From an uncultured virus (IMG/VR IMGVR_UViG_3300009130_000019) (lineage: Duplodnaviria; Heunggongvirae; Uroviricota; Caudoviricetes): a stretch of 20,000 bases of DNA. A model generated the notes under the pieces. That model saw nothing but the letters and a program-made list of their open reading frames with translations. It did no database searches and was not told the DNA's origin. Each line of letters begins with the position of its first letter. Within the stretch, counting starts at the first letter, position 1. Shown here piece after piece: positions 2 to 20,000 of the stretch. The stretch lies in IMG/VR virus record IMGVR_UViG_3300009130_000019. One strand, given 5' to 3'. Made by a program: the position numbers and the translations under genes.

Positions 2-3000
2 AACCAAAGTGTAGATCTTGATAAGTTTAATACTGAAAAAGATTATTTCATATCTATGCCTAAAGGTTTTTATTTAAATATTACAGTTGTTGAAGATACT
101 GGGAATGTTTTATTTACACTTAAGAAAAAAGAATTTAATGGACAAGAAACTAAAACAGTATTTCAAGACACCTTGACATTTACTAATGAACAAATCACAC
201 AGTTGTCAATTGATAATTTGCAGCAAATATTTGATTATTTTAATGTTCAAATAAAAGATAAATTAGATGATACAATTGCTGAAAATTTCACTCTTACAAA
301 AGAGCAGTTTAGAGTAAATTTTTCTAAAGATTCTACTAATGAAGAAATTGCAGGAGATGTAAAAACTGATTTACAAGCAAGGGTGTATAAGCGTAAAAAT
401 TATAAAATACAAGCTTCTACTGAGGCTATAGAGCAAATTAAAAACCCTCCTGTTAACACAAACAACAATAATAATAGCAATGCTAATAATCAAAACTCTA
501 ATAAATCAGACTTAGATAAAAAGATAGAAGAGATTAATTATATAAGAGAAGGTGCTAAATTGTTAATTGATTCAACTAAACTAGCAAATGTTGTTAGGCA
601 ATCAAATATTCAAAATACCAAGGAAGGGCTTGAAAATATTGTTAAGTTTTTAAATAATACGTTTTCAGATACATATAAACTTATAGAATTTGATGGAAAT
701 CAACTTACCTTGTCTAGGAATGGTATAGAATTTAAAATACCTTTTTCAGAAAATAAGCTAGGAGGGGGTGCAATTTATGTATTCGACTTTAATATAAATG
801 ACATTATAGATGCTAAATATAATGCAGAAATAGCAGCATTAACTTTAAATAACAACAATCCAGAATTTAGTAGAGATGATTTAGAGAATCAATTAAGAGA
901 ATTAGAAGATCAAGAACAAAAAAAGAGAAATGAAATAAACAAGCTTAAAAGAAAGCTTAAAAAACAAACTGATCAAAATAAGATTAATTCTATTACTCAA
1001 AAAATAAATGAGTTAGAAGCTGAAGAATTACAATTAGATAAGAAAATATCTGAAATAAATAAACAGCTCAATGAAATTATTGGGAAAGTTATTAATAAGT
1101 CTCATACTAAATATTCAGTAGAAGATATAGATACATTTATAAATTGGCTTAAAGATAATCTACCAAGCTTTATTACAGTTGAAGATATTGATACCCTTAA
1201 AGACAATATGTTACGTGGAGGAAAAAGAGTGGGTGGGTTTATGATGGACATAAGAAAGATAGCTGGAAAGATTAAATCTGGCGGAGTTATCTTTACTAAA
1301 GATGCAAATCCAGGAAAGTATCATGAAGCTTTTCACGCTGTATTTAGATTATTGCTTACAAATGAGGAAATTAGAAACTATTTACAAATAGCAGAAAAAG
1401 AAGTAAGGGAAAAATTAAGAAAAGAAGGTAAAACCTTAGACCAAGAACTTGAGTTGTTTAAAAATATTGATATAAGGTTTGATACATATTCTAAAAAACA
1501 GTTAAAGGAAAGATATTTAGAAGAGTATATGGCAGACGAGTTTGATTTATTTAAATCAAATCCAAGATCTACAAAAACAAACTCTTTCATCAAAAGTCTT
1601 TTTAATAGAATTGTAGAAATAATTAAGAATGTATTATCTTATTTTAGAAAGTCTGATAATGTAGCTTATAATAATCTTAATGAATTATTTATGGCTATTG
1701 ATTCAGGGAAATATAAGTCTGCAAATCTAATGGATAACAGATTTACAGAAACGTTTTCTCCAGGGACTTCAGAAATTATTAACACTTTAGTTCCGTATAA
1801 GAAAAGATCTGGTGGAGAATTAGTGTATCTTGATAGTGATACAAGTGATGCTTTAGTAAATCAAATTTATGCAAGAGTTTTAGTTCAACAAGAAAACAGG
1901 CCTGGTGTTACCATAGATGAACTTATGGATGAAAGCATTGAAAAATTTAATGACTTATATGAGCGACAGATAGAAGACTTAGAAGAAAATGATCCTGAAA
2001 ATAAAAAAATTAGCAGATATAATAATGTTCTTGAAGCATTAGATAATTTTAGAAAGGATATTAAGATCAATATAAATGAAAGGCTTAAATACATAAATCT
2101 TACACAGGAGAATATTGATAATGCTGAAGATGACAGTCTATATGAAATAGGAGAGAACACATCTAACTATGGTCTTAAACAAGAGATGATAGGTGCTGAA
2201 AAGTCTATGCCTAATTTTGTAAGAAAATATTTTGCTTCTACAACAATGGAAAAAAGGGATATGTTTGGTAATACATATCTCACCGAAGATACTATTGATG
2301 AGAATGGAGATATAGTTAAAGGAGAAAAAATAGTTTCCACACCAAATGTTGCAGAGGCATATAATGGATTCTTAAGAGCAACTAGTGATATATTTAATCA
2401 TTCAGAAATGCTTACCAAACTTGTAGTATTTACCGAGTCAAGTAATTTTGAATCTAAAGCAATTATAGATAGGTTGCTTAAAGATGTAGGTATGACAAGA
2501 GAGCAAATCCTTCAAGATGGAATAGATGAAGGATCTTTTATAGCTCTAAGTCTTGATAATGTTAGTAAAAAACCATATTTATTACATAGAGTATTAAAGT
2601 CTTTTGAGAATAGCATGTTTACATATAACATGTCAGTATATGATAAAAACACAAACCAATCATATACATATAATCCAATGACTTATTCTGCAAGAACTGC
2701 TCAAATAGAAAGGTGGAGTATTGGAAATGTTGCTGCTATAAAAAAACCAGAGGCAGAGAATTTTACAAAAGTAAAGAAAGCTCGTACAATATTTCAAAAT
2801 AAAAAAGTTAGGACTGATCAAAGTTTATTGGAAGACTCAAGGTTAATAGCGGAATTAATTGAAGATGGTGTAGGCATTTCATTAAGCCCTTTGTATATAC
2901 AGTATTCTATAGCAAAAAGTCAAGCACATACAATAAAACAAAGATATTTACGTAATGCTTTTGATAAAAGAGATCCTATAACAATAAGTGATTTGGAACA

Positions 3001-6000
3001 GTTATCATTTTTTGCTTTCACAGGCAATGCTATTTTTGTAAAAGATGCAGAAAAAGATATATCTAAAATTTATAGAAGATTAGCTTATAATAATATTGCT
3101 TTTGATGAAACTATAGGAACTACAACATTTTTAAATCCTGAAAATGAAAGAATATATGCTCACCAATTACCAACCTTTAATGCAAAGTTTGCTAAAGACC
3201 TAAATGAAAACTATCTTGATTTTTTAAATTATTTAGTTGAAAATGATTCAATCTTAGAATATAATCATTTAGTTAACCAGGAAGACTTTATAGAGTTTGT
3301 TGAGAATGGCGGGTTTAAATATGAAAGAATAGGTGGGTATTCTATTAAAGAATCTTCTGAAGACAGTTCATCTGGGTCATTTATAAATAAAGGTAAGTCA
3401 TATGGTAAGTTAACAATGGAAGAGTTTTTAACTATTTTATTAATGAATTACACCTCTAATATAACAGGTTCCGGTAGGTTTTCAGATTCAAAAATTCCAG
3501 CATCACCAATATTTACAAGAGTTGCAGAAACTTCAAGGACGGGACCAGAATTTCAAATGCCTATATATAAAGCCATTGAAGAAGATAGTAGTATTACCGA
3601 TAAAGCAATATATGATTTCTACAATTATATTAAAGGAGAGTTTTTAAGAATACAAAAAGAGAGTGCTGAAAATGCAAACACAAAGTTAATAAATAAATAT
3701 AATGCTATAATAAGCGATGTTACTGGTGAGCTTGTTAGAGATGAAAATAAAGAAGGCACAGCATTTAGACTATATAAAACATCAGCTGTTTTAAATAATA
3801 ATTTAGTTCAGGTAGAAAAAATAGAAAACCCTGCCACTGACAAGCTTGTGTATGATGTTATTAGTAAGTCTCCAAAGGGACAGGTAACAATAAGCAAAAC
3901 ATCAGAATTAGCAAACTCTTTAGAAAGAGATGAGAATTTTGCAAATAAAATTAAAATAAAAAAAGAGGAAAATCAACAAGAAATAGATTACAAAAGAACA
4001 TATTTAATTTATGTTGGAGAAAGTAAAGATGGATATATATTTGATTATGATAATAATTATGATGAATATATAGACAAGTCAATTACAGATAAGATTGAAA
4101 GACTTGCTTTAGATCCAGAAAATCAAGGTAGAGATTTTGAAGAAATAATGTCAGAGGAATTTACTGACAATTTAGAAAATATATTTGATCCATTAAATCC
4201 CAAAACAAAAATATCTGTACCTGCTTTTGTAAGAGAAAAATTAGAAGCTGAATTTGAAAAGTTTAAATCTATACTTCAAGATGAAAATATTAATTATTTA
4301 AATCCAGAATCTGAACTATATAATATCATTAATGGAACTCTTGTTGATCAAGAAAGATTAGATTCTTCAAATATAGAATATAATAAATTAGTTAATCAAA
4401 ATGCAGAAAAAAGCAGAAAGGTATTAAATCTTAAAAACAATTTATCTAATATTAGAAATTCTAATATTACTATTGATCATAATCTTAAACAAATATTTTT
4501 TAATCATTACTTTAATAATTTTGCATTAAATCAATTGTTATTGGGTGATCATGCTAAACTATTTGATAGTTATCAAAAAGAAATAAAAAGGGGTAAGGCT
4601 GGAGAATCTGCAGGGGCAAGTGCTTATTCAGAATTATTTGATAGCAAACTTGGAGTACATGAGCCAGTAAAAGAGTTTGACATGTTGGTTTTTAATGAGC
4701 CAAAAAATGAATCTTCATTAACAGGGGAAAAGCTAGATGAAGCTGATGGTCAGCTGTATATGACTGTTAAAGCATTTAGATATTTTTGGTTTGGCATAGC
4801 AAAACTTTCACCTAATCAAGCGGCATTACTTGACAAAATAGAAAAAGGGGAAAAACTAACTGCAGAAGAAATATGGGGAACTTTAAAAGGCGGTTATAGA
4901 TCTGGGGGTGCTGTTAAGAATGGTGAAATGCTCAACCCTAAAAAACTTGTGTATAATGATGCAGAAGTAATGGTAAAGATGTCTGCTTATGTTTTAAGAA
5001 AAGAAGATACATCTGAAAAATTTAATAATACCTGGGTAGCAAAGCCACATAAATTATTGCTACATAATCTTAGGGAGAAATTAGAAAAGCATGAAAAAGA
5101 ACATGGTGCACCAACTGTTGCTGCTCCATTATCTGCAGTTAAAAAAATGCAGGCTAGTGTAAATGGGTTGCTCAGGATGATATCTAATGATCAACAAGAT
5201 AGTGATTTAGGTGTAATGAAGTTAGATGCAAAATACTTTCTTCAACAACAAGTTAACCCTTCTAATAAAACTATTATTACAGACCCTACGCAGATTACAT
5301 TCTTATTAGAAAATGAGCAAGATGATAATCATGTAGTATTAATAAATGGGGAGGAATTTAAAATATCAGAAATTAAAGAATCTTTTGAGAAAAACAAGAG
5401 TGATATTTTAAAGTTTAATTATGCTAATAAAAAAGCATTAATGTTTGATGAAGCTATTGGCGAGTTTAAGAAGTTTAAAAAGACAAGTGAAATGACACCT
5501 AATCTTTTAAGCTTTTTAAGATACGCAGAAGAGTCATTGAAGTCTTCTAATTCATCAAGTGAAATTCTTCAATATTTTAATCTTAGTGAAGATGCTTATA
5601 GAACAGGCTTATTAAACAATCCTATAAGTATAAAAAAATACGAAGAGTTATTACTATCATATTTTAGCAAGTCTATTTTAAAACAAAAAATTCCTGGCTC
5701 TCAATATACAATGAGATCTGATTTTGGAGATAGAGTATACAGAAGGGTGTATTCTTATAGAGAAATAGAATTAAATGGCAAGGCTTATTATATACCAGAT
5801 AAACAAGAAGTAATTAGAGAAGAAGTAGCATTAAAAGAAATACGTAATTCTTATCAGTTACATATTGATCTTGACCCTGGCACAAACACAATATCAGATA
5901 ATGCGGGAAGTGATAGAAATTTAAAAGGTCTTAAAAGTCTGATTGATAAAGACACAAAAAATGAAGGTGTTATTATTATTGACCGTCTAAGGTATGATAT

Positions 6001-9000
6001 GACTGAATATACTTATGAAAACATTAATGATCTTGATAGTTGGACACCAACAGGTGAAAAATATACTGAGGCTATTACTGCAATTATAGACCCGGAAGTG
6101 TATGAGAAATTACAGATTGTTAAGAAAACATCTATGCAACTTGAGCAAGGTTTTAAACAGTGGATAAGTTTAAAGAATTATCCTACTAAAGGAGGGTTGC
6201 TTATAGCTAGAAAAGATAAGAAAAAATACAATGAAGAAAAAGAAAGAATAAACTATGCTAAACAAGAAAATGCTTGGTATGACAAAAAAAATAAAATGTT
6301 TGTACCAAAAGGATTTGAGAAAATACCTGATGTTTTAGCTAAGTTATTTGCCCTTAGAATACCTACCCAAGACAAGCATTCGGCTCTGGCTGTAAAAATT
6401 GTTGATTTTATGTCAGCAACTAATGGGTCAACTATTACTACAGCAAGAGAAATTGTTGAAGTGTCTGGAGCTGACTTTGATATTGATAAATTGTTTGCTC
6501 AATTTAAAGAGTTTGTATATGACAAAGAAACTAAAAACTTTGTTGAAGTTGGTATAAGGCCGGGAGAAGAGTTTTATGATTACATAAAAGTTATAAATAA
6601 AAAAGTAAATACTCCAGGTACAATATTTTTTGAAGCTTATGAAAAATACAAACTAGGCAATGGCTTTCCATCTACTATATCTTATACTGACAAACAAATA
6701 AAAATAGCTAAAAAAATTGGTTTTAATGAAAAAGCTTTTAAGGCTTTAGTAATGTTGGATTTGCCAACAACATTAGAAGACTTTAACCAATATTATATTG
6801 ATAATGAAAAAACATATCCATTTGATTCTATTAATCAAAATAAAGTTTTAGATGCAAAATATGCCCTTGTTGGCAATACTGCTATTACTAGTAAGTCTAA
6901 GTTGTACTTAGCACCTGATGGAACACTTAGCCGTACAAAAGAAGATGATTCCTATAAAGAAATAGAAGTAGAGCTGCCAGCTGTAGCTTATCAACCTGCA
7001 ACTATGGATGCTTTAAAAGAATCACTTGAAGATTTTAAAAGAAAGTTTCCTGATTGGGCAAAAACTGTAATAGATGATATTTTTGACAATGATACATTAA
7101 CTGGCCTAATGTTAGCATATAGGAACAATCAAGTTGGTTCAAGGCTTATTGGTGCCTCGGTACTACCAAATACATATTTGCCAAAGCTTGGTACGCTTGG
7201 TATATCAATCAATGAAAATTTTGCATTAGATATAAATGGTATAACTTTTAATAAGTTTGGTTCTATACTTGAAATGAAATCAGATGGAGCATTTGGTAGA
7301 AGATCACAAGATAATATGTCTGCTCTTATTACAGCAATGACAGATAACGCAACAGAACAATATGCTGGTAAATTTAATATAAATATAAATTCATTAGGTA
7401 TATTATCTAATATGGTTATGCTTGGGGTTCCTTTGCAAACAGGTCTTATGATGATTATTAATCCAGAAATACTTAATCTCTATAAGATAAGTACAGGAGG
7501 TAGGCAGTTCAAAGAAAATCTAAGTGGTTTAATGCAAAGGATAAATAACTATTTTGAAGAAAATACTATAACTACAGTAAGTAATATTTCTAATTCACAA
7601 TTAGAATATCTTGTTAATTCTGATATGAATGCTGAAGATATACTAGATGATATAGATAACATAAATGAAAATAAAATTGAATATCTTAAAAACTTATATT
7701 CTCTTTTACAAAATTATCAAAAAGGTAATAATTTGGCAGATTATAACTATAGTTTAGGAACTTTATTTTCTTTGCAAAAAGGTGTTAGTGACGTTGATTC
7801 CATGACTAAAATAGATGAAGCAATTGATAATTTAGGACTAGAAAAAGATTCAAAAAAACTTGATCCAAAAGAACATCCTTTTGATGCCAAAAAATTATTT
7901 GTAGATAAATCTATGCCATTAAATAAAATTGTTAGAACTTACTATGATATATATAAAGATATTAAAAATGATATTTTGCCCAATGTAGTGATGACTCAAA
8001 CAAAAATGTTTAAAGATTTATTCCAGTCAATAATTTCTAAAGATGTTATAGGTTTTATAACTAGAGATGGAAAGAAGAAACTAAAATATGATCTTGCTGC
8101 TTATGCTCAAATAAAAGCATATATGCAATATGTTTTTGAAAATAAACAAGGGACAAGCTATTCTAACCTAACAAATAATTTAATATATCCCTTTGATCAA
8201 TATGGTGATTCAAATGCAGATTCTATAACAACTATATATGATGAGATTGTTGATAAGAATCCAGATTTAGAAAATAACTTTTTTGTATATCAGTTTGTAA
8301 GGCCGATTATAGCAGATCCTAATATAAATACATATGACATTCATATGCTGGCCAATAATATGATGAGCAAAATACCCGATCATAAAAAAAGAGATGTTAT
8401 TGATGATTTTGTTAAATTATATAAAAACAACAAAACAAAATCTTTGGCTGTTCAAATATTTAATTATTTATTAGTTAAAGATGGATTACAATATAGTAGA
8501 GATTCTATTATGCAAGCTTTGGCACCTATAGTAATGCAAGACTTTACAGAGGTTGTTGGAGAGACATTTGAAAGATTTAAGGATGGACCTGTTGATATTG
8601 ATGGGATGTTTAATGAATTCATTACAAATTATTTTATGAGTTCTAATATTTACTTTAACCCAAATTTTGGTATTAAGAAAAGAAAAGAAGTAGAATCAAT
8701 ATCTAATGCTGATTTATATTCTGCTGAATATAATAATGATAGGATAGAATTTATTGACACGGACAGAAATGATATTTATGTAATTAATCCTTATGGTATA
8801 AACCAAACATCTGGTTTTATCACAAGAAATATGTTTGATAAAACTCAATCAGAAATAGATTTTGCTGTGAAAAAATTATATCCTTCAAAAGAAAAGGGTG
8901 TTGGATTTTTTAAAGCTGGTGGTAAAAGTATACAGTTTAAATTTCCAGCTATAATACAAGTAGAAAATATAGTAGAAGGTGAAAAAGTAATACAGTCTTA

Positions 9001-9523
9001 TAAGCTTACCAGTCTGGTTTCCCAGAACAAAACAGAACAGGTTATAAATGTAGATAATAGATCATACTTAGGCTATTATGCAGAATACACACCAGTTCAA
9101 CCAGAGGGTTCTAAGTTGCAATGGGGTGGCGGGTTTGTATTTGGAGAAAGGCCCTCTTTTGAACAACTAAAAGCTTTTTCTGGTAGTGAAGGTATTCAAA
9201 ATACACAAGAAGACACTACATCAAAGTTTGATTTTTCTGTTGATGATGTAGTATTTGACAAGCAAGAATTTGATGTGGAAAAAGAGGAACTACTAAAGTT
9301 GTTTAAAGATAATCTACGTGGTAAAATATTTTCATATAATGAGCCTACTTATGTAAAATATGTTAATGATAAAATGAAAGCACTTAATGTAAATTTTAAA
9401 AGTTTTGATGATTTTGTTAAATTTATGATTAAGTTTAGAAAAGACAGTGATTTTGACACTGCTAGTATGAAAGAATTCTATAACTGTAATGGTCTTGGAT
9501 TCTTAGGCAATTTACCTTTTTAA
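2..9523 (+). CDS. Giant virion-packaged DNA-dependent RNA polymerase (single chain, two double-psi beta-barrels) with N-terminal zincin metallopeptidase domain; 5'-truncated
   Basis: Frame is open from base 2 (NQSVDLDKFNTEKDYFIS before the Met at 56), so the real start is probably upstream of the window. Motifs: HEAFH 1322-1336 and EEYMADEF 1520-1543 (zincin); ADGQ 4742-4753, KMS 4976-4984, SAVK 5132-5143 (beta-like barrel); RIPTQ 6356-6370 and SGADFDIDK 6464-6490 (beta'-like catalytic loop). The DFDID variant is characteristic of crAss-like RNAPs such as phi14:2 gp66. Confidence 0.9.
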   Translation, partial: NQSVDLDKFNTEKDYFISMPKGFYLNITVVEDTGNVLFTLKKKEFNGQETKTVFQDTLTFTNEQITQLSIDNLQQIFDYFNVQIKDKLDDTIAENFTLTKEQFRVNFSKDSTNEEIAGDVKTDLQARVYKRKNYKIQASTEAIEQIKNPPVNTNNNNNSNANNQNSNKSDLDKKIEEINYIREGAKLLIDSTKLANVVRQSNIQNTKEGLENIVKFLNNTFSDTYKLIEFDGNQLTLSRNGIEFKIPFSENKLGGGAIYVFDFNINDIIDAKYNAEIAALTLNNNNPEFSRDDLENQLRELEDQEQKKRNEINKLKRKLKKQTDQNKINSITQKINELEAEELQLDKKISEINKQLNEIIGKVINKSHTKYSVEDIDTFINWLKDNLPSFITVEDIDTLKDNMLRGGKRVGGFMMDIRKIAGKIKSGGVIFTKDANPGKYHEAFHAVFRLLLTNEEIRNYLQIAEKEVREKLRKEGKTLDQELELFKNIDIRFDTYSKKQLKERYLEEYMADEFDLFKSNPRSTKTNSFIKSLFNRIVEIIKNVLSYFRKSDNVAYNNLNELFMAIDSGKYKSANLMDNRFTETFSPGTSEIINTLVPYKKRSGGELVYLDSDTSDALVNQIYARVLVQQENRPGVTIDELMDESIEKFNDLYERQIEDLEENDPENKKISRYNNVLEALDNFRKDIKININERLKYINLTQENIDNAEDDSLYEIGENTSNYGLKQEMIGAEKSMPNFVRKYFASTTMEKRDMFGNTYLTEDTIDENGDIVKGEKIVSTPNVAEAYNGFLRATSDIFNHSEMLTKLVVFTESSNFESKAIIDRLLKDVGMTREQILQDGIDEGSFIALSLDNVSKKPYLLHRVLKSFENSMFTYNMSVYDKNTNQSYTYNPMTYSARTAQIERWSIGNVAAIKKPEAENFTKVKKARTIFQNKKVRTDQSLLEDSRLIAELIEDGVGISLSPLYIQYSIAKSQAHTIKQRYLRNAFDKRDPITISDLEQLSFFAFTGNAIFVKDAEKDISKIYRRLAYNNIAFDETIGTTTFLNPENERIYAHQLPTFNAKFAKDLNENYLDFLNYLVENDSILEYNHLVNQEDFIEFVENGGFKYERIGGYSIKESSEDSSSGSFINKGKSYGKLTMEEFLTILLMNYTSNITGSGRFSDSKIPASPIFTRVAETSRTGPEFQMPIYKAIEEDSSITDKAIYDFYNYIKGEFLRIQKESAENANTKLINKYNAIISDVTGELVRDENKEGTAFRLYKTSAVLNNNLVQVEKIENPATDKLVYDVISKSPKGQVTISKTSELANSLERDENFANKIKIKKEENQQEIDYKRTYLIYVGESKDGYIFDYDNNYDEYIDKSITDKIERLALDPENQGRDFEEIMSEEFTDNLENIFDPLNPKTKISVPAFVREKLEAEFEKFKSILQDENINYLNPESELYNIINGTLVDQERLDSSNIEYNKLVNQNAEKSRKVLNLKNNLSNIRNSNITIDHNLKQIFFNHYFNNFALNQLLLGDHAKLFDSYQKEIKRGKAGESAGASAYSELFDSKLGVHEPVKEFDMLVFNEPKNESSLTGEKLDEADGQLYMTVKAFRYFWFGIAKLSPNQAALLDKIEKGEKLTAEEIWGTLKGGYRSGGAVKNGEMLNPKKLVYNDAEVMVKMSAYVLRKEDTSEKFNNTWVAKPHKLLLHNLREKLEKHEKEHGAPTVAAPLSAVKKMQASVNGLLRMISNDQQDSDLGVMKLDAKYFLQQQVNPSNKTIITDPTQITFLLENEQDDNHVVLINGEEFKISEIKESFEKNKSDILKFNYANKKALMFDEAIGEFKKFKKTSEMTPNLLSFLRYAEESLKSSNSSSEILQYFNLSEDAYRTGLLNNPISIKKYEELLLSYFSKSILKQKIPGSQYTMRSDFGDRVYRRVYSYREIELNGKAYYIPDKQEVIREEVALKEIRNSYQLHIDLDPGTNTISDNAGSDRNLKGLKSLIDKDTKNEGVIIIDRLRYDMTEYTYENINDLDSWTPTGEKYTEAITAIIDPEVYEKLQIVKKTSMQLEQGFKQWISLKNYPTKGGLLIARKDKKKYNEEKERINYAKQENAWYDKKNKMFVPKGFEKIPDVLAKLFALRIPTQDKHSALAVKIVDFMSATNGSTITTAREIVEVSGADFDIDKLFAQFKEFVYDKETKNFVEVGIRPGEEFYDYIKVINKKVNTPGTIFFEAYEKYKLGNGFPSTISYTDKQIKIAKKIGFNEKAFKALVMLDLPTTLEDFNQYYIDNEKTYPFDSINQNKVLDAKYALVGNTAITSKSKLYLAPDGTLSRTKEDDSYKEIEVELPAVAYQPATMDALKESLEDFKRKFPDWAKTVIDDIFDNDTLTGLMLAYRNNQVGSRLIGASVLPNTYLPKLGTLGISINENFALDINGITFNKFGSILEMKSDGAFGRRSQDNMSALITAMTDNATEQYAGKFNININSLGILSNMVMLGVPLQTGLMMIINPEILNLYKISTGGRQFKENLSGLMQRINNYFEENTITTVSNISNSQLEYLVNSDMNAEDILDDIDNINENKIEYLKNLYSLLQNYQKGNNLADYNYSLGTLFSLQKGVSDVDSMTKIDEAIDNLGLEKDSKKLDPKEHPFDAKKLFVDKSMPLNKIVRTYYDIYKDIKNDILPNVVMTQTKMFKDLFQSIISKDVIGFITRDGKKKLKYDLAAYAQIKAYMQYVFENKQGTSYSNLTNNLIYPFDQYGDSNADSITTIYDEIVDKNPDLENNFFVYQFVRPIIADPNINTYDIHMLANNMMSKIPDHKKRDVIDDFVKLYKNNKTKSLAVQIFNYLLVKDGLQYSRDSIMQALAPIVMQDFTEVVGETFERFKDGPVDIDGMFNEFITNYFMSSNIYFNPNFGIKKRKEVESISNADLYSAEYNNDRIEFIDTDRNDIYVINPYGINQTSGFITRNMFDKTQSEIDFAVKKLYPSKEKGVGFFKAGGKSIQFKFPAIIQVENIVEGEKVIQSYKLTSLVSQNKTEQVINVDNRSYLGYYAEYTPVQPEGSKLQWGGGFVFGERPSFEQLKAFSGSEGIQNTQEDTTSKFDFSVDDVVFDKQEFDVEKEELLKLFKDNLRGKIFSYNEPTYVKYVNDKMKALNVNFKSFDDFVKFMIKFRKDSDFDTASMKEFYNCNGLGFLGNLPF
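1322..1640 (+). other. Zincin-like metallopeptidase domain within giant ORF1, catalytic residues apparently intact
   Basis: HEAFH (HExxH), a downstream EExxAxxF helix that could supply the third ligand, then an amphipathic helix FIKSLFNRIVEIIKNVL. This layout is typical of metallopeptidase domains in phage polyvalent proteins. Confidence 0.8.
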
Positions 9524-9532
9524 TAATTTATT

Positions 9533-12500
9533 ATGGCTTGCATAAATGTATCTTTACCAGAATTTCAAACCTTATCTAAATCTTTTTCTACTAGCAGCAT
9601 AGCTTATGTTAAAACATTAAGGTGGCAAAAAGAGAATAATACGGATGCTATTCCTACATATGAGGATATAGTAGCAATGGATAACAAAGCAAAAAAAGAA
9701 AGTAAAGTAAAAAAGGATGTCCTTGCAAAAAAGATTTTTAATAATTTGCAGAGCAAGGGGCTTATCACCATTGTTAATGATGAAGTTTATGTTAAAGATC
9801 CTAAAGAAAGTTTACAAGACATAGACAACAATATAAATAAAATTAAAAATTATTTAGGCTGGAATGATATTCCTGTGGGTTTTATGACATTTGAAAAGAA
9901 AGATCAACTCACTAAAATAAAAATTAATTATTCACAAATTTCTAATAATGATCCTGTATTATCTAAAACAAATTTTAAGATAAGCAGGACAAAGAAAATA
10001 TTAGACTCTGTAATAAACAGACTTCCTGTAGATTATCAATATTTAACTTCAGAAGAAGCATTAAATATATATGAAGAAATACCAAGTGAGCTTAAAGAAA
10101 ATGTAAGTTTTGATAGTGTCAAATCATTTTTTAACCCGATAACTAAGCAGGTAATTCTTATTAGTGGCAGAGTAACAGACAAAATAGCATTAGAAGAGGT
10201 TATACATCCATTTGTTGCCTCTATGAAAAAAGAAAATAAAAAACTTTTTGATGATCTTTATAAAGAAAGTAAAGAGCTTTACCCAGAGCTGGTAAAGTTT
10301 ATAGAGAATAATTATAAGTTTGACGTGCAAGAAGAGCTAGTTACAAAAGTTCTTCTTGAAAAACTTTTAAAGCCAACAGAAAAGAAAAAATCAAAAAGAT
10401 TTATTTCTTTATTAAAAAGAGTTTTAGAATATATAGGAAATATACTTAAAAGTATTCCAAGGTTTTTGCAAGGGGTGTCTATTGATATGGTAAATATAAA
10501 TAATAATACAACTCTTGATGATATAGTTAATATGCTCAACACTGATGATTTGACCATAAATTATAACATACCAGAAAAAATGCGTGTTAAGTATGCATTA
10601 GACCCTATTAAAAGCAATGTTGTTAATGAGGCATTAAACAAAGGAAATGCCAAACAAAAAGCTATGATCTATGATCTATATAGCACTGTTTTAGATGTGG
10701 AAGAAGAATACCAACAATTTATTGTAAAAAATAAATTTGAAGAGGATGCTTTAGTAGTTCTTGATGAAGAAACACACACATACAGGGATGTTGTTAATGA
10801 TGTAAGTTTTGTTGGGTCAACCAGTACCTTTAATAAAAAACCAACTGAAGATGAAAAAAAATTCATGCAATTTAATTTAGACATGGGTACTATTTATGAC
10901 AGGGTTTTAGAAAATTTAATATTAAACAAAGATCAAAACGAAACATTTTTATCATTACAAGAAGACCCAAGTGTAAAATTAAATCTTATAGGGGAGACTG
11001 TTCAAAGTCAATTTGAACAAATGAAAAATATATATGATCTATTTGAAGAAAACATGGAACAATTTATATCCCCTGGAGATATTGTCTTACCTCAGGTTAT
11101 TATACACCAAAAAGCCAAAAACAAACAATATTATACAAATATAGCAGGAGCTATTGATTTGCTTGTAATTACGAAAGAGGGAAAGCTGAGAGTGGTAGAT
11201 TTAAAAACAAGCAAACATTCAGTAATGAGTGACAGCTATAATAAACCATGGCCTATAAAAGGAACTCTTTTACACCAACAGCTTAAAAAGTTAGGTGGTG
11301 TTTTACATAATGGCGCATATAGAGTTTTAGATGAAATGTCTACCAGGCAAAAGCATCAATTGCAATTAGCTATGTATTCAAGGATGTTAGAAAACATGGG
11401 TTATGAGATAGATCATCAACAACCTTTTTTTACAATAAATGTACAAATAGGTGTTCAGGATACTATAGAGGGTCAAGAATATACTGGAGAACATTCTTTT
11501 GAAGGTATTAATGCACAAAAAGTTATAGTTGAAGATACACAGTTGACAAAAGCCCCCCTTACAACATCAGAAATGTTGGTTGACTTTCTTTTGGAAAACT
11601 ATGCAGAAAAGAAAGAATTTGAAGAAAAGGCAGAATCAACGGCAGAGCAAGAAATGCCAGAGCAATTTGATTATATGACTGAGCTTGATATAATACAAAA
11701 TCAACTTACACAATATGAGCAGATTCTTATAAAAAGAAAGGATGCTGTTAAGCAAATGAATAATAAAATATTTATAGACGTAGATAGAAAAACTTATCTT
11801 AAGAAGATTGATATGGTTTTAAGTTTAATTTCTACCGCAATTGCTTCAAAGGATGTTCAAGAGTCAAGAGCTGCATTTACAGAATCAATATTAAATGCTA
11901 TTGAACAATCAGATAAATTCATTAAGTACTTAAGCGATCCAATAAATCACATTAAACAAGAATTTATTATATATGCACAAAATGCAAAAAGATTTGCCGA
12001 TCAATTTGAGTCTATAAATATTTTAAAAGATGCTGAACTTCTATCTCCTACATTAAAAGATCAAATATTAAGATTGCAAAGTAGGCTTAATAAAATTGCC
12101 GGGAATAATGGAACAGACTTATCTTTATCACAACAAGCAGTTTTTGATTTTGTTAAGCAAAAAATATTAGATAATACAACACAAGAGTTTGACAAAGGAG
12201 AGTTAGATCTATTAATGAAAGAAAGCATGGACATTTCTTTTTTAGAATTTAAAACTAGAGATATGTCAACATCAAGAGATTTGTTTGCAAGGGTTCTTGA
12301 TAAGATAGCCAAGAATAAAAAAATGAATGTTTTTGATAATGCAGATGCAATAAGAAGAGAATTGGCAGAAGTTGGAAACATGTTACATAATGCTTCTGAA
12401 GATAAAGATCCTCAAAAGTATCATAATTTTATGACTAATGATGATGGTACATTAGTCTTAAAATATTCCAGAGAATTTAGTAATAAGAAGAGGGAGGTTA

Positions 12501-15343
12501 GATCTAAAATGTTTAATGAGCAAGACAACTGGAAAGAATATCATATAATAGATGACATAGAAAGTGCTACAAAAGAGCAAATAGAATATAATAAACAGCT
12601 TGCTAAAGATAAAAGAGCTTTTGCGGAATTTATGAGTCCTGAAAAGATTAATGATGATGGAACAATTAGAAAAGGTGACCATTATGAATACAGCGAAGAG
12701 TTTATTAAGGAGAGAGCAAAATATGAAACTCTGCATGTAAATAGATATGGTGCATTTTATTGGAGAAGAAAAGTAGGTTTATCTGACAGGATGTACAAGG
12801 CTTTTGAAAATAAATATTATGAAAAGAAAAAATATTTAACAGCAGCATATTATAAAAATGAGCCTACTGGTATGACTGTAACAAAAACCAAAAAATTTGT
12901 TAAGCCAAAATATGTAAAGATTAGAGATGTTGATTCATCAGGAAAATCTCAATTAAATGAAAGGTATGAGAAAATTATGAATCCTGTTGATGAATTAGGT
13001 AGGGTGCAAAAACAATATTATGAAACATGGATGAGGCTTTACAATAATGAATTGGATAAACTACCTGCAGGGCAGCAAGCTAGAATGATTGGAAGGATGC
13101 CTGTTGTTATGAACAGGTTTGCTGAAGAGCTTGAAAATAAAGAATCTCCAGTTATAAGAATATTTGCAAAATTAAAGCAATCTTATGAATCAATCAAATC
13201 ATTCTTTACAGGAACTTTGCATACAAAAGCTGTAACCATAAATGAATTTGGTGAATTAGTACAAAGTCCACCTGTGTTTTTTACTGGTAGTTTAAAAGAT
13301 GAGGAAAGACTTGAAGAAATTAATAATATAATTGATGATTTACAAGAGAAAAGAAAAGCTGGAGATATAGGCTATGATGAATACAATAAGAAATTTACAA
13401 TGCTAAATGCAGAAAGGAAAAATATACAAAATAGACCTACTGCAAGTCAATTAAACAGAGATTTGACATCTACGCTTATGCAGTTTTCTTTAATGGCAGA
13501 AAATTATGCACAGATGAATGAAGCAGAGAATATTTTTAATGCTTTTTTATCTGTAATAGAAAGGAAAAACTTTCAACCTAAAAGCACATATTTAACAGGA
13601 TATTATAAAGGTAAAGAATTTATAGAAAAGGGTTCTATATCAGGTAAAGAATCATATGTTTATCAAAGAGTTAAAAAATATTTAGAATTAAATATTTGGG
13701 AAACAGATTCTGTTCCTAAATCACTTGTAGAAAAAGTTGTTAATGGGATATTAAAATACACTTCTTTAACTTTCGTTTCTTTAAACCCTTTTGGATCATT
13801 AAATAACTTTGTAGTTGGTAAGATAGGTAACTATATAGAAGCTATTGGTGCCAGGTATTTTCCACTTAGATCTTATACGTGGGCAGAAAAAGAATTTAAA
13901 ACTAATCAATTACCTGCCATGATTAGAAGGATAAGTAGTAAAGTAGAAGGTGGTGTTGATATAGCCAGAGAAAAATTTGGAGATATTCTTGACGCCCATT
14001 TAGCCAAAGAGAGAAATTCAGGGTATTACGATCCTAAACTACCTATGTCTAAATGGGAGGCTTTAGTTGATTATTTTAGAATGATGGATAATAAAGCAGA
14101 TTTACGTGAGGCTAGCTTTGATCTAAATCAAAAATCATTTTTCAGCAAAATGATAGACTTTTCTTATATCATGCAGGATGGTGGAGAGTATACTAACCAA
14201 ACTAAAGTAGGAATGTCTATATTACACTCAACTATTGTGCAAGATGTAGATAGGAAAATGCCGGAAATATCATTGTATGATGCATTTGTTTTTGATATTA
14301 ACAATGCAAATAGTGCAAAATATGGATTAAAACTAAAGAAAGGTTATGAAAATATAATGGTAATAAAAACTCCTGGTCAATTTAAAGGTGAAGCTTCAGC
14401 AGCCGCTAATGGAGATGTTCTTTTTGATAATGATTTTAGATATAATTTAAGAAATTACATTAGAGAGTCCAACAAGCAAATACATGGTAATTATGCTAAG
14501 GTTGACAGAATGGTAATAGAAGGGCATTATGTAGGTAAGCTTATAGCTCAGTTTCATAAATGGGTGGTGCCAGTTGTTAGTGCTAGATTTCAAGCGGAAT
14601 ATTATGATGAAAACCTTGGGTGGGTAGAAGGCAGGGCAAGGTCAGCTGCTAAAATGCTAAAGTATACTTTAACTAATTTAGATAAATTGTCTTTAGATAG
14701 AAAAAAAATGGAAAGAGATTTTATAGATTTTCAAAAAGGCAAACAAAAAAGATTTAAAACAGAAGATCCTGAAAAAATAAAAAAGTTAGAAGAGCAATTA
14801 GAAAATAGATTTAAAAATCAATTTTCTGGCGCAAGAAGATACATTGTAGAGATAACCATGTTAATTGGGTTGTATCTAACTAAGTGCTTAATAGATTCAT
14901 TTGATGATGATGAAGAAATAGACTTAGATACTTATGTGCAACATGGGGGCATTGACTTTGAAAAGGGTTCATCACCCACATGGAATAAACTATATAACAT
15001 ATTAAGGTATCAAGCAGATAGGTCTTATAAAGATTATTCAATATTTGTACCTTTTACTACTTCTTCTTGGAATCAATTAATGAATCAAATACAATCTCCA
15101 ATAGCATCAACAAAAGTGCTAAAAGAATTTACACAGTTTGCATCACAGTTATGGTCAACACCTTTTGCTTATCTAGGTCTTAGTGAAGAAGACTTTTATT
15201 CTAATAAAGAATATGTTTATCAAAGAGGCCCAAGGAAAGGGCAGTTAAAATTAGTTAAAGAATGGCAGGATATAACACCCTGGGTAAGAACTATTAAAAA
15301 ATGGTTTGATTCAGATATAAAGAGAGATTATTATGTTAATTAA
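9533..15343 (+). CDS. Giant virion cargo/ejection-type polyvalent protein: degenerate zincin, PD-(D/E)xK nuclease and helical C-terminal region with a hydrophobic segment
   Basis: 1936-aa ORF starting 10 nt after the RNAP stop. EEVIH 10193-10207 with EELVT 10331-10345; GAIDLL...VVDLKTS 11147-11212 with QLAMY 11363-11377; HGNY...QFHKW 14483-14563; hydrophobic stretch YIVEITMLIGLYLTKCLI 14840-14893. Position next to the RNAP matches crAss-like cargo genes. Confidence 0.75.
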   Translation: MACINVSLPEFQTLSKSFSTSSIAYVKTLRWQKENNTDAIPTYEDIVAMDNKAKKESKVKKDVLAKKIFNNLQSKGLITIVNDEVYVKDPKESLQDIDNNINKIKNYLGWNDIPVGFMTFEKKDQLTKIKINYSQISNNDPVLSKTNFKISRTKKILDSVINRLPVDYQYLTSEEALNIYEEIPSELKENVSFDSVKSFFNPITKQVILISGRVTDKIALEEVIHPFVASMKKENKKLFDDLYKESKELYPELVKFIENNYKFDVQEELVTKVLLEKLLKPTEKKKSKRFISLLKRVLEYIGNILKSIPRFLQGVSIDMVNINNNTTLDDIVNMLNTDDLTINYNIPEKMRVKYALDPIKSNVVNEALNKGNAKQKAMIYDLYSTVLDVEEEYQQFIVKNKFEEDALVVLDEETHTYRDVVNDVSFVGSTSTFNKKPTEDEKKFMQFNLDMGTIYDRVLENLILNKDQNETFLSLQEDPSVKLNLIGETVQSQFEQMKNIYDLFEENMEQFISPGDIVLPQVIIHQKAKNKQYYTNIAGAIDLLVITKEGKLRVVDLKTSKHSVMSDSYNKPWPIKGTLLHQQLKKLGGVLHNGAYRVLDEMSTRQKHQLQLAMYSRMLENMGYEIDHQQPFFTINVQIGVQDTIEGQEYTGEHSFEGINAQKVIVEDTQLTKAPLTTSEMLVDFLLENYAEKKEFEEKAESTAEQEMPEQFDYMTELDIIQNQLTQYEQILIKRKDAVKQMNNKIFIDVDRKTYLKKIDMVLSLISTAIASKDVQESRAAFTESILNAIEQSDKFIKYLSDPINHIKQEFIIYAQNAKRFADQFESINILKDAELLSPTLKDQILRLQSRLNKIAGNNGTDLSLSQQAVFDFVKQKILDNTTQEFDKGELDLLMKESMDISFLEFKTRDMSTSRDLFARVLDKIAKNKKMNVFDNADAIRRELAEVGNMLHNASEDKDPQKYHNFMTNDDGTLVLKYSREFSNKKREVRSKMFNEQDNWKEYHIIDDIESATKEQIEYNKQLAKDKRAFAEFMSPEKINDDGTIRKGDHYEYSEEFIKERAKYETLHVNRYGAFYWRRKVGLSDRMYKAFENKYYEKKKYLTAAYYKNEPTGMTVTKTKKFVKPKYVKIRDVDSSGKSQLNERYEKIMNPVDELGRVQKQYYETWMRLYNNELDKLPAGQQARMIGRMPVVMNRFAEELENKESPVIRIFAKLKQSYESIKSFFTGTLHTKAVTINEFGELVQSPPVFFTGSLKDEERLEEINNIIDDLQEKRKAGDIGYDEYNKKFTMLNAERKNIQNRPTASQLNRDLTSTLMQFSLMAENYAQMNEAENIFNAFLSVIERKNFQPKSTYLTGYYKGKEFIEKGSISGKESYVYQRVKKYLELNIWETDSVPKSLVEKVVNGILKYTSLTFVSLNPFGSLNNFVVGKIGNYIEAIGARYFPLRSYTWAEKEFKTNQLPAMIRRISSKVEGGVDIAREKFGDILDAHLAKERNSGYYDPKLPMSKWEALVDYFRMMDNKADLREASFDLNQKSFFSKMIDFSYIMQDGGEYTNQTKVGMSILHSTIVQDVDRKMPEISLYDAFVFDINNANSAKYGLKLKKGYENIMVIKTPGQFKGEASAAANGDVLFDNDFRYNLRNYIRESNKQIHGNYAKVDRMVIEGHYVGKLIAQFHKWVVPVVSARFQAEYYDENLGWVEGRARSAAKMLKYTLTNLDKLSLDRKKMERDFIDFQKGKQKRFKTEDPEKIKKLEEQLENRFKNQFSGARRYIVEITMLIGLYLTKCLIDSFDDDEEIDLDTYVQHGGIDFEKGSSPTWNKLYNILRYQADRSYKDYSIFVPFTTSSWNQLMNQIQSPIASTKVLKEFTQFASQLWSTPFAYLGLSEEDFYSNKEYVYQRGPRKGQLKLVKEWQDITPWVRTIKKWFDSDIKRDYYVN
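10760..11400 (+). other. RecB-like PD-(D/E)xK nuclease domain within giant ORF2
   Basis: Motifs in the expected order: LDEETHTY, MGTIYDRVLE, GAIDLL, VVDLKTS, HQLQLAMY (GxxD ... DxK ... QxxxY). Confidence 0.8.
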
Positions 15344-15542: not shown

Positions 15543-15574
15543 TTTGACAAACGTTTTATTATTTTGTATATTTA
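15543..15574 (+). promoter_or_regulatory. Putative host-RNAP promoter for the holin/fibre operon
   Basis: TTGACA (15544-15549), 17-nt spacer, TATATT (15567-15572). The same bases also fit the Bacteroidota consensus TTTG-N20-TAnnTTT(G) as TTTG 15543-15546 and TATATTTA 15567-15574. The next ATG is at 15589. Confidence 0.65.
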
Positions 15575-18442: not shown

Positions 18443-18856
18443 ATGGCAAAGAAATTTTGGACAGAAGTAGATGCAGTTAATATACCTGCTGTTGTGTTTT
18501 CAGAAGCACAACCTCCCCCATCTGCTGATGGTAAAGAATTCACTGAAGTGACAGATTCTGCTGAAATTAAACAGCTATATATTACTCAATATGCCTATAG
18601 AATAGATGATGGGCAAGATTACATCAAAAACTTCACAGCAGACAGGTATATTGATGTTATAAATGGAGTATATACTGAAGCAGAAGTTTTTGCTTTGGAA
18701 TCTCACATCAAAGACCTTTATAGTGCTCTTGGCAATGGGTGGTGGTTAACTGCTCAAAATATTAATCAAAATTTGATACTTGATGGTATTTATGATGCTG
18801 CAATGAAAAGTAGTATACAAAGCACCATTGACACATATGTAAGTGATAATTATTAA
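18443..18856 (+). CDS. Hypothetical acidic protein (137 aa), possibly a tail-fibre assembly chaperone
   Basis: A-rich leader, plausible composition, position directly after the fibre genes. Function inferred from context only. Confidence 0.45.
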   Translation: MAKKFWTEVDAVNIPAVVFSEAQPPPSADGKEFTEVTDSAEIKQLYITQYAYRIDDGQDYIKNFTADRYIDVINGVYTEAEVFALESHIKDLYSALGNGWWLTAQNINQNLILDGIYDAAMKSSIQSTIDTYVSDNY

Positions 18857-19183: not shown

Positions 19184-19303
19184 ATGTTAAAGCAAGAAAA
19201 TCAGGTTGACCACGATCAGGTTCTTAAGGATTTTGTAAAAAAGCAAAAGAAAAGAATAAAGAAACTTAAGGATAGGTGTAATAAAAAACTAGATAAGAAA
19301 TGA
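19184..19303 (+). CDS. Small lysine-rich hypothetical protein (39 aa), not in the ORF track
   Basis: MLKQENQVDHDQVLKDFVKKQKKRIKKLKDRCNKKLDKK. It fills the gap between neighbours, has A at -3, and its TGA overlaps the next ATG (ATGA 19300-19303). Confidence 0.6.
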   Translation: MLKQENQVDHDQVLKDFVKKQKKRIKKLKDRCNKKLDKK

Positions 19304-20000
19304 ATATTTTACAAGATATCTTAGGACTTTTTAAAAGAAGGGAAATAATTAAAACTCCAAGAAGTAATGATTATTTTCCTTTAGCTACTTTCAAAAGTAA
19401 AAAAGAAGCTTTAAAGCCAAATCCAAAAATGGAAACGGTTATAATTTCTGCTATAGATTTAAAAAATTATATAGGAGGAGGAGGTGGTGGAGGTGAAGAT
19501 TTAGCTGCCACCCTTCTATTAGGCAATATTACAGGAGGCACTGCTATATCTATGTCAGCAGGAGATAATATAGTTGCTACTAGTTCAGATCCTAATAAAA
19601 CTGTAACTTTAGATTTTGGTAATCTTGCATCTAATAGATATTTTGATATAACTACAGATAATCAAAATTATTTAACTCCTTTTTTATCCATCACTAATTC
19701 TTTAGCGCAATTTGGAACAGATACTGCACTTCTTGAGATATTGACAAATAGTTTAGATATAAAAAAAGGAACATTTAGAATAAAAAGTGGTGCTTTTTAT
19801 TACGCAAGTTATATTCCAACTACATTAACTGCTGATCAAACTTATACATTTCAAGATGCAAGTGGAACAGTTGCTTTTCTTTCTGATATTGCAGGAGGCT
19901 CATATGTACAAACAGGGCAAACAACAGATGGAGTGCAATTGACATTGACAAGTTCACAAACAATAACTAACAATTCTGTACAAAGTTTTGTTACAAGAAT
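19300..20000 (+). CDS. Tail fibre-like protein, 3'-truncated, not in the ORF track
   Basis: Open from ATG 19300 to the window end: MNILQDILGLFKRR..., Gly7 linker 19474-19494, EDLAATLLLGNITGG and the fibre motif LTADQTYTFQDASGTVAFLSDI. N-terminus is paralogous to the ORF at 15831. Confidence 0.75.
   Translation, partial: MNILQDILGLFKRREIIKTPRSNDYFPLATFKSKKEALKPNPKMETVIISAIDLKNYIGGGGGGGEDLAATLLLGNITGGTAISMSAGDNIVATSSDPNKTVTLDFGNLASNRYFDITTDNQNYLTPFLSITNSLAQFGTDTALLEILTNSLDIKKGTFRIKSGAFYYASYIPTTLTADQTYTFQDASGTVAFLSDIAGGSYVQTGQTTDGVQLTLTSSQTITNNSVQSFVTR

Follow-up and report, generated by a model that had tools for sequence, protein, structure and literature searches.

Facing terminal cysteines in two giant, otherwise nearly cysteine-free cargo proteins of an uncultured virus suggest an end-to-end link of the ejected chains

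We analyzed a stretch of 20,000 nucleotides from an uncultured virus of the Caudoviricetes (IMG/VR record IMGVR_UViG_3300009130_000019), referred to as the window in its full length. Two giant adjacent genes of the window, open reading frame 1 (ORF1) and ORF2, encode proteins that are nearly free of cysteine apart from one residue at each of the two termini that face each other across the gene junction (Table 1). An earlier note made from the letters alone (the original prediction) had pointed to these facing terminal cysteines and had proposed a disulfide or a shared metal site between the two proteins; the observation itself is confirmed. Comparison with related phages strongly supports the pairing of the two cysteines, and the disulfide itself and its role in ejection are plausible. 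We consider it fairly probable that an end-to-end inter-chain disulfide joins both giants into one linear cargo chain within the particle.

The window shows only the 3' part of ORF1, whose full-length product is the protein record P0039 (4826 amino acids, aa). Searches against PHROGs and Pfam returned no family for ORF1 and, for ORF2, a sub-threshold PD-(D/E)XK match only. In a tblastn comparison with phage crAss001, ORF1 matched gp50 around the motif DFDID (46% identity over 65 aa), and a profile of this region (A6) matched PDB entry 6vr4_A, a "DNA-dependent RNA polymerase" of 2194 aa, at E 3.4e-17, so that a DFDxD motif lies in a region homologous to a solved enzyme, as in the virion RNA polymerases of Crassvirales. 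We take this entry to be gp66 of phage phi14:2. Further upstream, residues 2075–2227 of P0039 align to residues 2137–2293 of crAss001 gp47 (BLASTP, E 8e-5), a block in the C-terminal zincin region that includes YHEAFH in both proteins (YHEAFHV in gp47). DFDID is found at about residue 3811 in P0039 as compared with residue 1486 in gp50, and the sizes of crAss001 gp47 (2341 aa) and gp50 (2412 aa) can be set beside the 4826 aa of the fused protein. Judged by these alignments, ORF1/P0039 is a gp47-like zincin protein fused to a gp50-like RNA polymerase. The original prediction had spoken of an RNA polymerase protein, which holds for the polymerase part and not for the product as a whole, since this part is fused to a gp47-like zincin protein. 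The position of the fusion is approximate, being extrapolated from the end of gp47 about 48 residues beyond the aligned block; with a profile built from 18 fused proteins, no mapping was obtained past the zincin block.

By the same kind of comparison, ORF2 is a gp49-like protein: its residues 1283–1744 align to crAss001 gp49 at 22% identity (tblastn), and local BLASTP gave E 2e-23. The gene order agrees with Crassvirales as well, with the zincin gp47-like part upstream (here fused) and the gp49-like gene directly downstream. Because of their homology with crAss001 gp47/gp50/gp49 and phi14:2 gp67/gp66/gp65, both giants are probably cargo proteins of a crAss-like phage that are packed in the particle and injected. 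For crAss001, mass spectrometry is reported to have identified gp47, gp49 and gp50 in virions, and the three are placed in a cargo zone of the capsid (PMC10172136). Similarly, the phi14:2 cargo proteins were detected in virions by mass spectrometry (annotation notes, NC_021806), and counterparts of gp47, gp50 and gp49 are described as fused in some phages (Drobysheva preprint).

Counting bore out the positions given in the original prediction for all three cysteines of the two giants. The 3173 visible residues of ORF1 contain a single cysteine, at visible residue 3162, and P0039 has the same cysteine and none elsewhere; ORF2 (1936 aa) contains Cys3 and Cys1785 only. The latter is absent from P0002, a homologue at 79% identity, and, contrary to the original prediction, it is not found in a strongly hydrophobic segment, the Kyte-Doolittle score of every 19-residue window being 1.6 or lower. 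Across the other seven ORFs, there are 8 cysteines in 1426 aa (0.56%). With this rate as background, about 38 cysteines would be expected in the 6762 aa of P0039 and ORF2 as compared with the 3 found (P(<=3) = 3.5e-13), and base composition alone (30% G+C DNA) predicts 2.5% cysteine codons. A difference in the same direction was obtained from the 80 related loci introduced below, where cysteine accounts for 0.58% of residues in smaller plus-strand ORFs (150–999 aa) versus 0.046% in the giants. A further statement of the original prediction, that the downstream fibre proteins each contain cysteine, was not upheld: the ORFs at 18443–18856 and 19300–19998 are cysteine-free, and a fibre identity is not demonstrated for any of the downstream ORFs.

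Both terminal cysteines are conserved among relatives of the two proteins. All 38 homologues of ORF2, ranging from 100% down to 17% identity, carry a cysteine at residue 3–5 or, in one case, at residue 9, after an internal methionine; 34 of the 38 have no further cysteine, and Cys3 is one of 20 invariant columns across the set. Likewise, each of nine homologues of the giant upstream protein (4550–5353 aa) has a cysteine within its last 2–12 residues, and seven of the nine have no other. A scan of viral contigs with ORF2 residues 1–400 alone found no relative. The scan with alignment A1 returned 234 relatives, from which 80 loci (L002–L081) were kept. Among these, every complete gp49-like ORF (66/66) has exactly one cysteine, at residue 3–5, and the fragments cut at the 5' end are cysteine-free (13/13); no gp49-like ORF was recognised by motif in one locus (L059). 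At all 63 junctions, the upstream giant has a cysteine 2–9 residues from its end and is otherwise cysteine-free over up to 3331 visible residues, with the exception of one extra cysteine in L030. Three further loci start too near the gp49-like gene to show the upstream ORF. The co-occurrence of a C-terminal and an N-terminal cysteine in homologous pairs, which the original prediction had put forward as a check, is thus found at 63/63 junctions and agrees with the 38/38 ORF2 homologues.

The sequence around the two residues is conserved to very different degrees on the two sides. Among 32 upstream relatives, the C-terminal 80 residues share a mean identity of 27%, with the cysteine as the sole invariant column, and the first 80 residues of the downstream protein are well conserved at 59% identity; Asn5 and Asn7 of ORF2 are the only other conserved residues near either terminal cysteine. 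Structure prediction of the last 80 aa of ORF1 (predicted local distance difference test, pLDDT, 64; modest confidence) suggests a helix that ends at the cysteine and is followed by a floppy tail, and in the predicted fold of ORF2 residues 1–450 (pLDDT 68, again modest confidence) Cys3 lies in coil. When the C-terminal 80 aa of ORF1 and the N-terminal 80 aa of ORF2 were co-folded, each supplied with an alignment of 32 rows, the score was 0.19 compared with a mark of 0.32, a result that weighs neither way on binding.

In addition, a profile of the polymerase retrieved 3204 cluster representatives at E <= 1e-3, of which the best 150 were analyzed. Among these 150, 80 representatives are at least 4000 aa long. 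None of the 80 has a cysteine in its first 10 residues, while 78 have one in the last 9; the two remaining ones carry it in the same ..NDECA motif, at distances of 26 and 58 residues from the end. Exactly one cysteine is present in 52 of the 80, and the internal cysteine density of this group is 0.018%. A cysteine in the first 7 residues was found in 22 of the best 150, all of them 2201–3802 aa long, which is the size of a separate polymerase; 21 of the 22 also have a cysteine in the last 15 residues, and the 22nd has it 22 residues from the end. The other 48 representatives are shorter, mostly fragments, and have no N-terminal cysteine; 34 of them end in the cysteine motif.

The arrangement of the cargo genes was compared across 12 genomes, namely the window and 11 annotated phage records. 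Judged by these sequences, the cysteine pair is kept where the genes are separate and dropped where they are fused. The cargo proteins of crAss001 (gp47/gp50/gp49) and phi14:2 (gp67/gp66/gp65) are homologous to those of the window, syntenic with them and follow the same terminal-cysteine rule, whereas in the window the gp47-like and gp50-like parts form one polypeptide, leaving one junction instead of two. In crAss001, with three genes, gp47 has a cysteine third from its end, gp50 has Cys5 and another cysteine ninth from its end, and gp49 has Cys5. For phi14:2, the single cysteine of g067 is its last residue, g066 (2180 aa) has only Cys3 and Cys2179, and g065 only Cys3. Similarly, the three proteins of Dulem virus 41 have a cysteine fourth from the end, then Cys4 and a cysteine as last residue, then Cys5. 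The crAss001 pattern was found throughout 80 Kehishuvirus-like loci; the four-sequence gp49 alignment A3 returned only close relatives of crAss001.

Where gp47 and gp50 are fused (the window, FpV4, cr1_1 and cr53_1), the cysteine pair is present only at the remaining junction and the fusion point has no cysteine. For example, the 4287-aa fusion protein of FpV4 contains one cysteine, second from its end, and the downstream protein has Cys3. The same pattern is seen where gp50 is fused to gp49, as in Rudgehvirus jaberico and crAssphage LMMB: the zincin protein of Rudgehvirus jaberico has one cysteine, second from its end, and the fusion of 4098 aa has Cys3 but lacks a cysteine at its far end; crAssphage LMMB agrees in these respects. 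In all 12 sampled genomes, both outer ends of the chain are cysteine-free. Altogether, the extension to a three-protein chain and the loss of the pair in fused genes support the facing-terminus reading of the original prediction.

A link of this kind has been observed in another phage. According to a cryo-electron microscopy study of cyanopodophage A4 (PMC12002296, PNAS 2025), a disulfide connects Cys1715 of gp27 with Cys5 of gp26 in the pre-ejectosome; there, a cleft of gp26 receives the C-terminal helix of gp27, an arrangement "further stabilized" by this bond. In the A-4L record, these residues are the only cysteines of gp27 (1717 aa) and gp26 (1114 aa). The window resembles A4 in that neighbouring genes code for large internal or ejection proteins with cysteines almost only at their facing ends, that is, a cysteine near the C-terminus of the upstream protein and one at residue 3–5 of the downstream protein in otherwise nearly cysteine-free chains, and in the conservation of this pair across diverged relatives. 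Homology was not found: BLASTP of the window proteins gave no match to A4 gp27 or gp26 below E 1, searching the PDB with profile A1 yielded no match below E 0.4, and Foldseek with the model of ORF2 residues 1–450 gave nothing at E <= 0.001. The window pair may thus work like the A4 pair by likeness of design, with descent not demonstrated. The A4 link differs in joining two proteins only, with no RNA polymerase among them. Furthermore, the A4 paper presents the disulfide as one stabilising contact in one phage and not as a rule, and the word "cysteine" is absent from its main text (PMC12002296).

As an observation on A4 itself, the four Saffermanviridae examined, including A-4L (L165), have a gp27-like protein with a single cysteine 2–3 residues from the end and a gp26-like protein with Cys5, and this signature is kept in Pf-WMP3, Pf-WMP4 and TR020 (L173, L174 and L175) at 23–27% identity. 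Therefore, the published disulfide looks like a family trait of the Saffermanviridae.

For Crassvirales, we found no paper stating a terminal-cysteine rule: full-text searches turned up no papers other than those on DEV and A4 and the Bayfield paper, and the word "cysteine" does not appear in the main texts, supplements aside, of PMC10172136, PMC7886860, PMC10136315 and the Drobysheva preprint. Disulfides as such are reported from crAss001 virions, in the tail and in gp57 (PMC10172136). A4 provides a known case of this kind of link; the new elements are the chain rule for polymerase cargo and the exchange of the link with gene fusion.

A second comparison is offered by the Schitoviridae (N4 gp50, DEV gp71–gp73), in which a giant virion RNA polymerase and the neighbouring ejection proteins are likewise purged of cysteine, a purge that has been explained by the need of these proteins to cross the periplasm (PMC11445570). 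The absence of cysteine from the N4 virion RNA polymerase, which the original prediction had taken as established, agrees with this source. In contrast to the window, where the depletion is shared and the terminal cysteines are retained, the purge in Schitoviridae is described as complete, with 0.00075% cysteine in gp71 homologues and no terminal cysteine retained (PMC11445570). The two virion polymerases are described as globally distinct in structure (PMC13434306).

We propose the following mechanism. Cysteine has been purged from both giants, as in other ejected phage proteins, with the exception of the terminal pair. The thiols near the C-terminus of P0039 and at residue 3 of ORF2 would form an inter-chain disulfide in the particle, yielding an unbranched chain of 6762 residues and about 0.78 MDa. 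With the link at the termini and overhangs of 11 and 2 residues, such a chain could still be threaded through a narrow channel, whereas internal disulfides would create loops unable to pass. In phages with fused genes, a peptide bond joins the same modules, and the disulfide would stand in for this bond. A linear chain held by a terminal bond would account for the purge, for the strict terminal placement of the cysteines and for their exchange for a peptide bond. Our comparison demonstrates the depletion of cysteine, the positions and conservation of the pair, its gain and loss with gene fission and fusion, and a matching signature in a phage whose disulfide has been observed. For the window phage, we infer that the bond exists, that it serves an ordered ejection and that it is reduced in the cytoplasm.

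How crass-like phages deliver hundreds of kilodaltons of protein through a narrow tail has been raised as an open question (PMC10172136, PMC13434306), and the cargo concerned includes the polymerase that starts the infection. A conserved end-to-end link would determine in which order and in what stoichiometry the proteins are ejected, and would explain both the purge of cysteine and the frequent fission and fusion in the cargo block. A single cysteine at the facing ends of otherwise cysteine-free neighbours is also a simple signature by which linked ejection proteins could be found in uncultured phages. More speculatively, and with a probability we would put clearly on the doubtful side, terminal disulfides and peptide bonds could be interchangeable joins throughout Crassvirales and allied phages. 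The whole RNA-polymerase cargo would then be one linear chain, pulled through the tail from N- to C-terminus in fixed order and cut into active enzymes by the reductants of the host cytoplasm. If true, this would amount to a redox-timed release, and would explain why the genes of the cargo block split and fuse so freely.

Several points weigh against a disulfide-linked chain. In crass-like phages, all evidence for the bond is indirect. The particles are assembled in a reducing cytoplasm, and many hosts are anaerobes, which makes the timing of thiol oxidation a difficulty. According to PMC10172136, several copies of each cargo protein are probably packed in crAss001, so that chains could be mispaired unless a specific docking surface guides them. 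Within the clade of the window, the co-occurrence of the two cysteines is inseparable from shared descent, both being invariant, and the sampled architectures amount to no more than about two independent cases of gene fission or fusion. In addition, some sequences depart from the rule. The last cysteine of cr273_1 lies 50 residues from the end, and in four representatives the last cysteine lies 21–58 residues from the end. As annotated, crAss002 gp33 has its first cysteine at residue 35, and it fits the rule only if the true start is the internal Met33, giving M-S-C. At the gp055/gp056 boundary of IAS virus, a cysteine is present on one side only, in a part of the record with ambiguous bases and overlapping ORFs. 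Finally, gut lineages have more internal cysteines, up to 25 in one representative.

One alternative accepts a real disulfide or contact and regards it as a static staple of the packed cargo, which breaks or becomes irrelevant at ejection, so that no single thread is formed. The sole observed case, the A4 pre-ejectosome, is described in this way (PMC12002296), and our data are neutral on the ejection step. However, a staple could sit anywhere on an interface, and the strict placement at the ends and the replacement by a peptide bond suit a linear chain better. We regard the static staple as rather unlikely.

Another possibility is that the terminal cysteines act singly, by attachment to a virion part, as a redox switch or as the leftover of a cargo-protease recognition site. 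Crass-like phages do offer cargo proteins with a lone near-terminal cysteine and no evident partner, namely crAss002 gp30 and Rudgehvirus gene49. On the other hand, the terminal cysteines occur in facing pairs that follow the order of the chain, with none at its outer ends, and are lost together at fusions. The fused junctions are cysteine-free, and therefore cleavage, if any, needs no cysteine. We give such solo roles little credence. Furthermore, crAss001 gp47 is encoded on the opposite strand from gp50, which rules out translational coupling or another cause at the nucleotide level.

The shared metal ion between the two thiols, which the original prediction had named beside the disulfide, has in its favour that two facing thiolates could bind a soft metal, and our data are neutral as to the chemistry. 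Such a bridge is very unlikely: neither cysteine is accompanied by a further conserved residue that could act as ligand (His, Cys, Asp or Glu), and the precedent of A4 is a disulfide. Chance or base composition, for which the 30% G+C content and the rarity of cysteine in phage proteins could be cited, is refuted by the cysteine counts of the window and of its relatives and by positions that are invariant down to 17–27% identity, which leaves it a next to negligible probability.

Four other ideas were rejected by reasoning only. A split intein does not fit the cysteine positions, and intein blocks are missing; a CaaX-like prenylation signal or a lipobox is at odds with a bacterial host and the lack of a signal peptide; and a role as N-terminal nucleophile does not agree with a cysteine offset that varies from 3 to 6. 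Stop read-through was dismissed in view of the double TAA and of the 18/63 relatives in which the spacer is not a multiple of three. ORF1 and ORF2 share one reading frame on the plus strand, and the spacer is a multiple of three at the other 45 of the 63 junctions in relatives.

Table 1 Positions of the two cargo genes, their motifs and their cysteine codons in the window
Feature	Position	Strand	Remarks
ORF1	2..9523	+	5'-open; last 3173 aa of 4826-aa cargo protein P0039, about 555 kDa
Zincin motif YHEAFHA	1319..1339	+	HExxH type; near C-terminal end of gp47-like part; BLASTP
Approximate gp47-like/gp50-like fusion point	1730..2030	+	extrapolated from alignments; cysteine-free
DFDID catalytic motif, two-barrel RNA polymerase	6473..6487	+	profile match to 6vr4_A
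TGT, only cysteine of the 4826-aa protein	9485..9487	+	12th residue from C-terminus (FYNCNG)
Gene junction TAA TAA TTT ATT	9521..9532	+	double stop, then 6-base spacer
ORF2	9533..15343	+	1936-aa gp49-like cargo protein, about 226 kDa
TGC, Cys3 of ORF2	9539..9541	+	MACIN; motif M-A-(x)-C-x-N-x-N; invariant in 38 homologues
TGC, Cys1785 of ORF2	14885..14887	+	non-conserved; outside the feature

Some further observations concern the cargo genes of the relatives. Breaks of the gp50-like gene without a junction cysteine were examined as counter-examples and ruled out, as the inserts at these sites carry homing-endonuclease ORFs. Such inserts of about 0.85 kb, located about 45 codons before the DFDVD motif of the gp50-like gene, are present in 8 of the 80 Kehishuvirus-like loci (L088 at 6192–7034, L092, L126, L130, L133, L155, L156 and L162), and encode HNH (PF13392, E 4e-8) or LAGLIDADG (PF14528, E 3e-6) proteins. 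The one insert scanned with Rfam (L088) matched the group I intron family RF00028 at 42.9 bits, below the gathering score of 50. The annotated cargo genes of cr53_1 and cr273_1 (L171 and L172) contain 12–40 in-frame stops under translation table 11, in line with the stop-codon reassignment described for some crass-like phages (PMC7886860), and cr53_1 still keeps the terminal-cysteine rule. The lone cysteine of the smaller gp45-like transmembrane cargo proteins of Intestiviridae stands 8–11 residues from the C-terminus ("..RCGG.."); the two partnerless examples mentioned above, crAss002 gp30 (L169, 889–2562) and Rudgehvirus gene49 (L083, 4537–6810), belong here.

Precomputed Pfam labels point to additional domains in several homologues, with PF18760 in P0010 and PF06414 and PF13671 in P0023, both gp49-like, and PF13532 in P0044 and P0045, which are homologues of the giant upstream protein. 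Therefore, enzyme modules may ride along on the injected chain. In the window itself, a 96-aa ORF at 15544–15834 matches the holin family phrog_3427 (E 2.7e-13) and occupies the place of the 63-aa crAss001 gp48, which is annotated as "shock protein C". ORF2 contains a PD-(D/E)XK-like motif (AIDLL ... VVDLKTSK) at aa 532–568 (window positions 11126–11236), where the sub-threshold Pfam match is to PF12705 (E 4e-4, 20.8 bits, below the cut-off of 22); the motif is kept in the consensus of the ORF2 family, and the homologue P0006 carries a precomputed PF12705 label.

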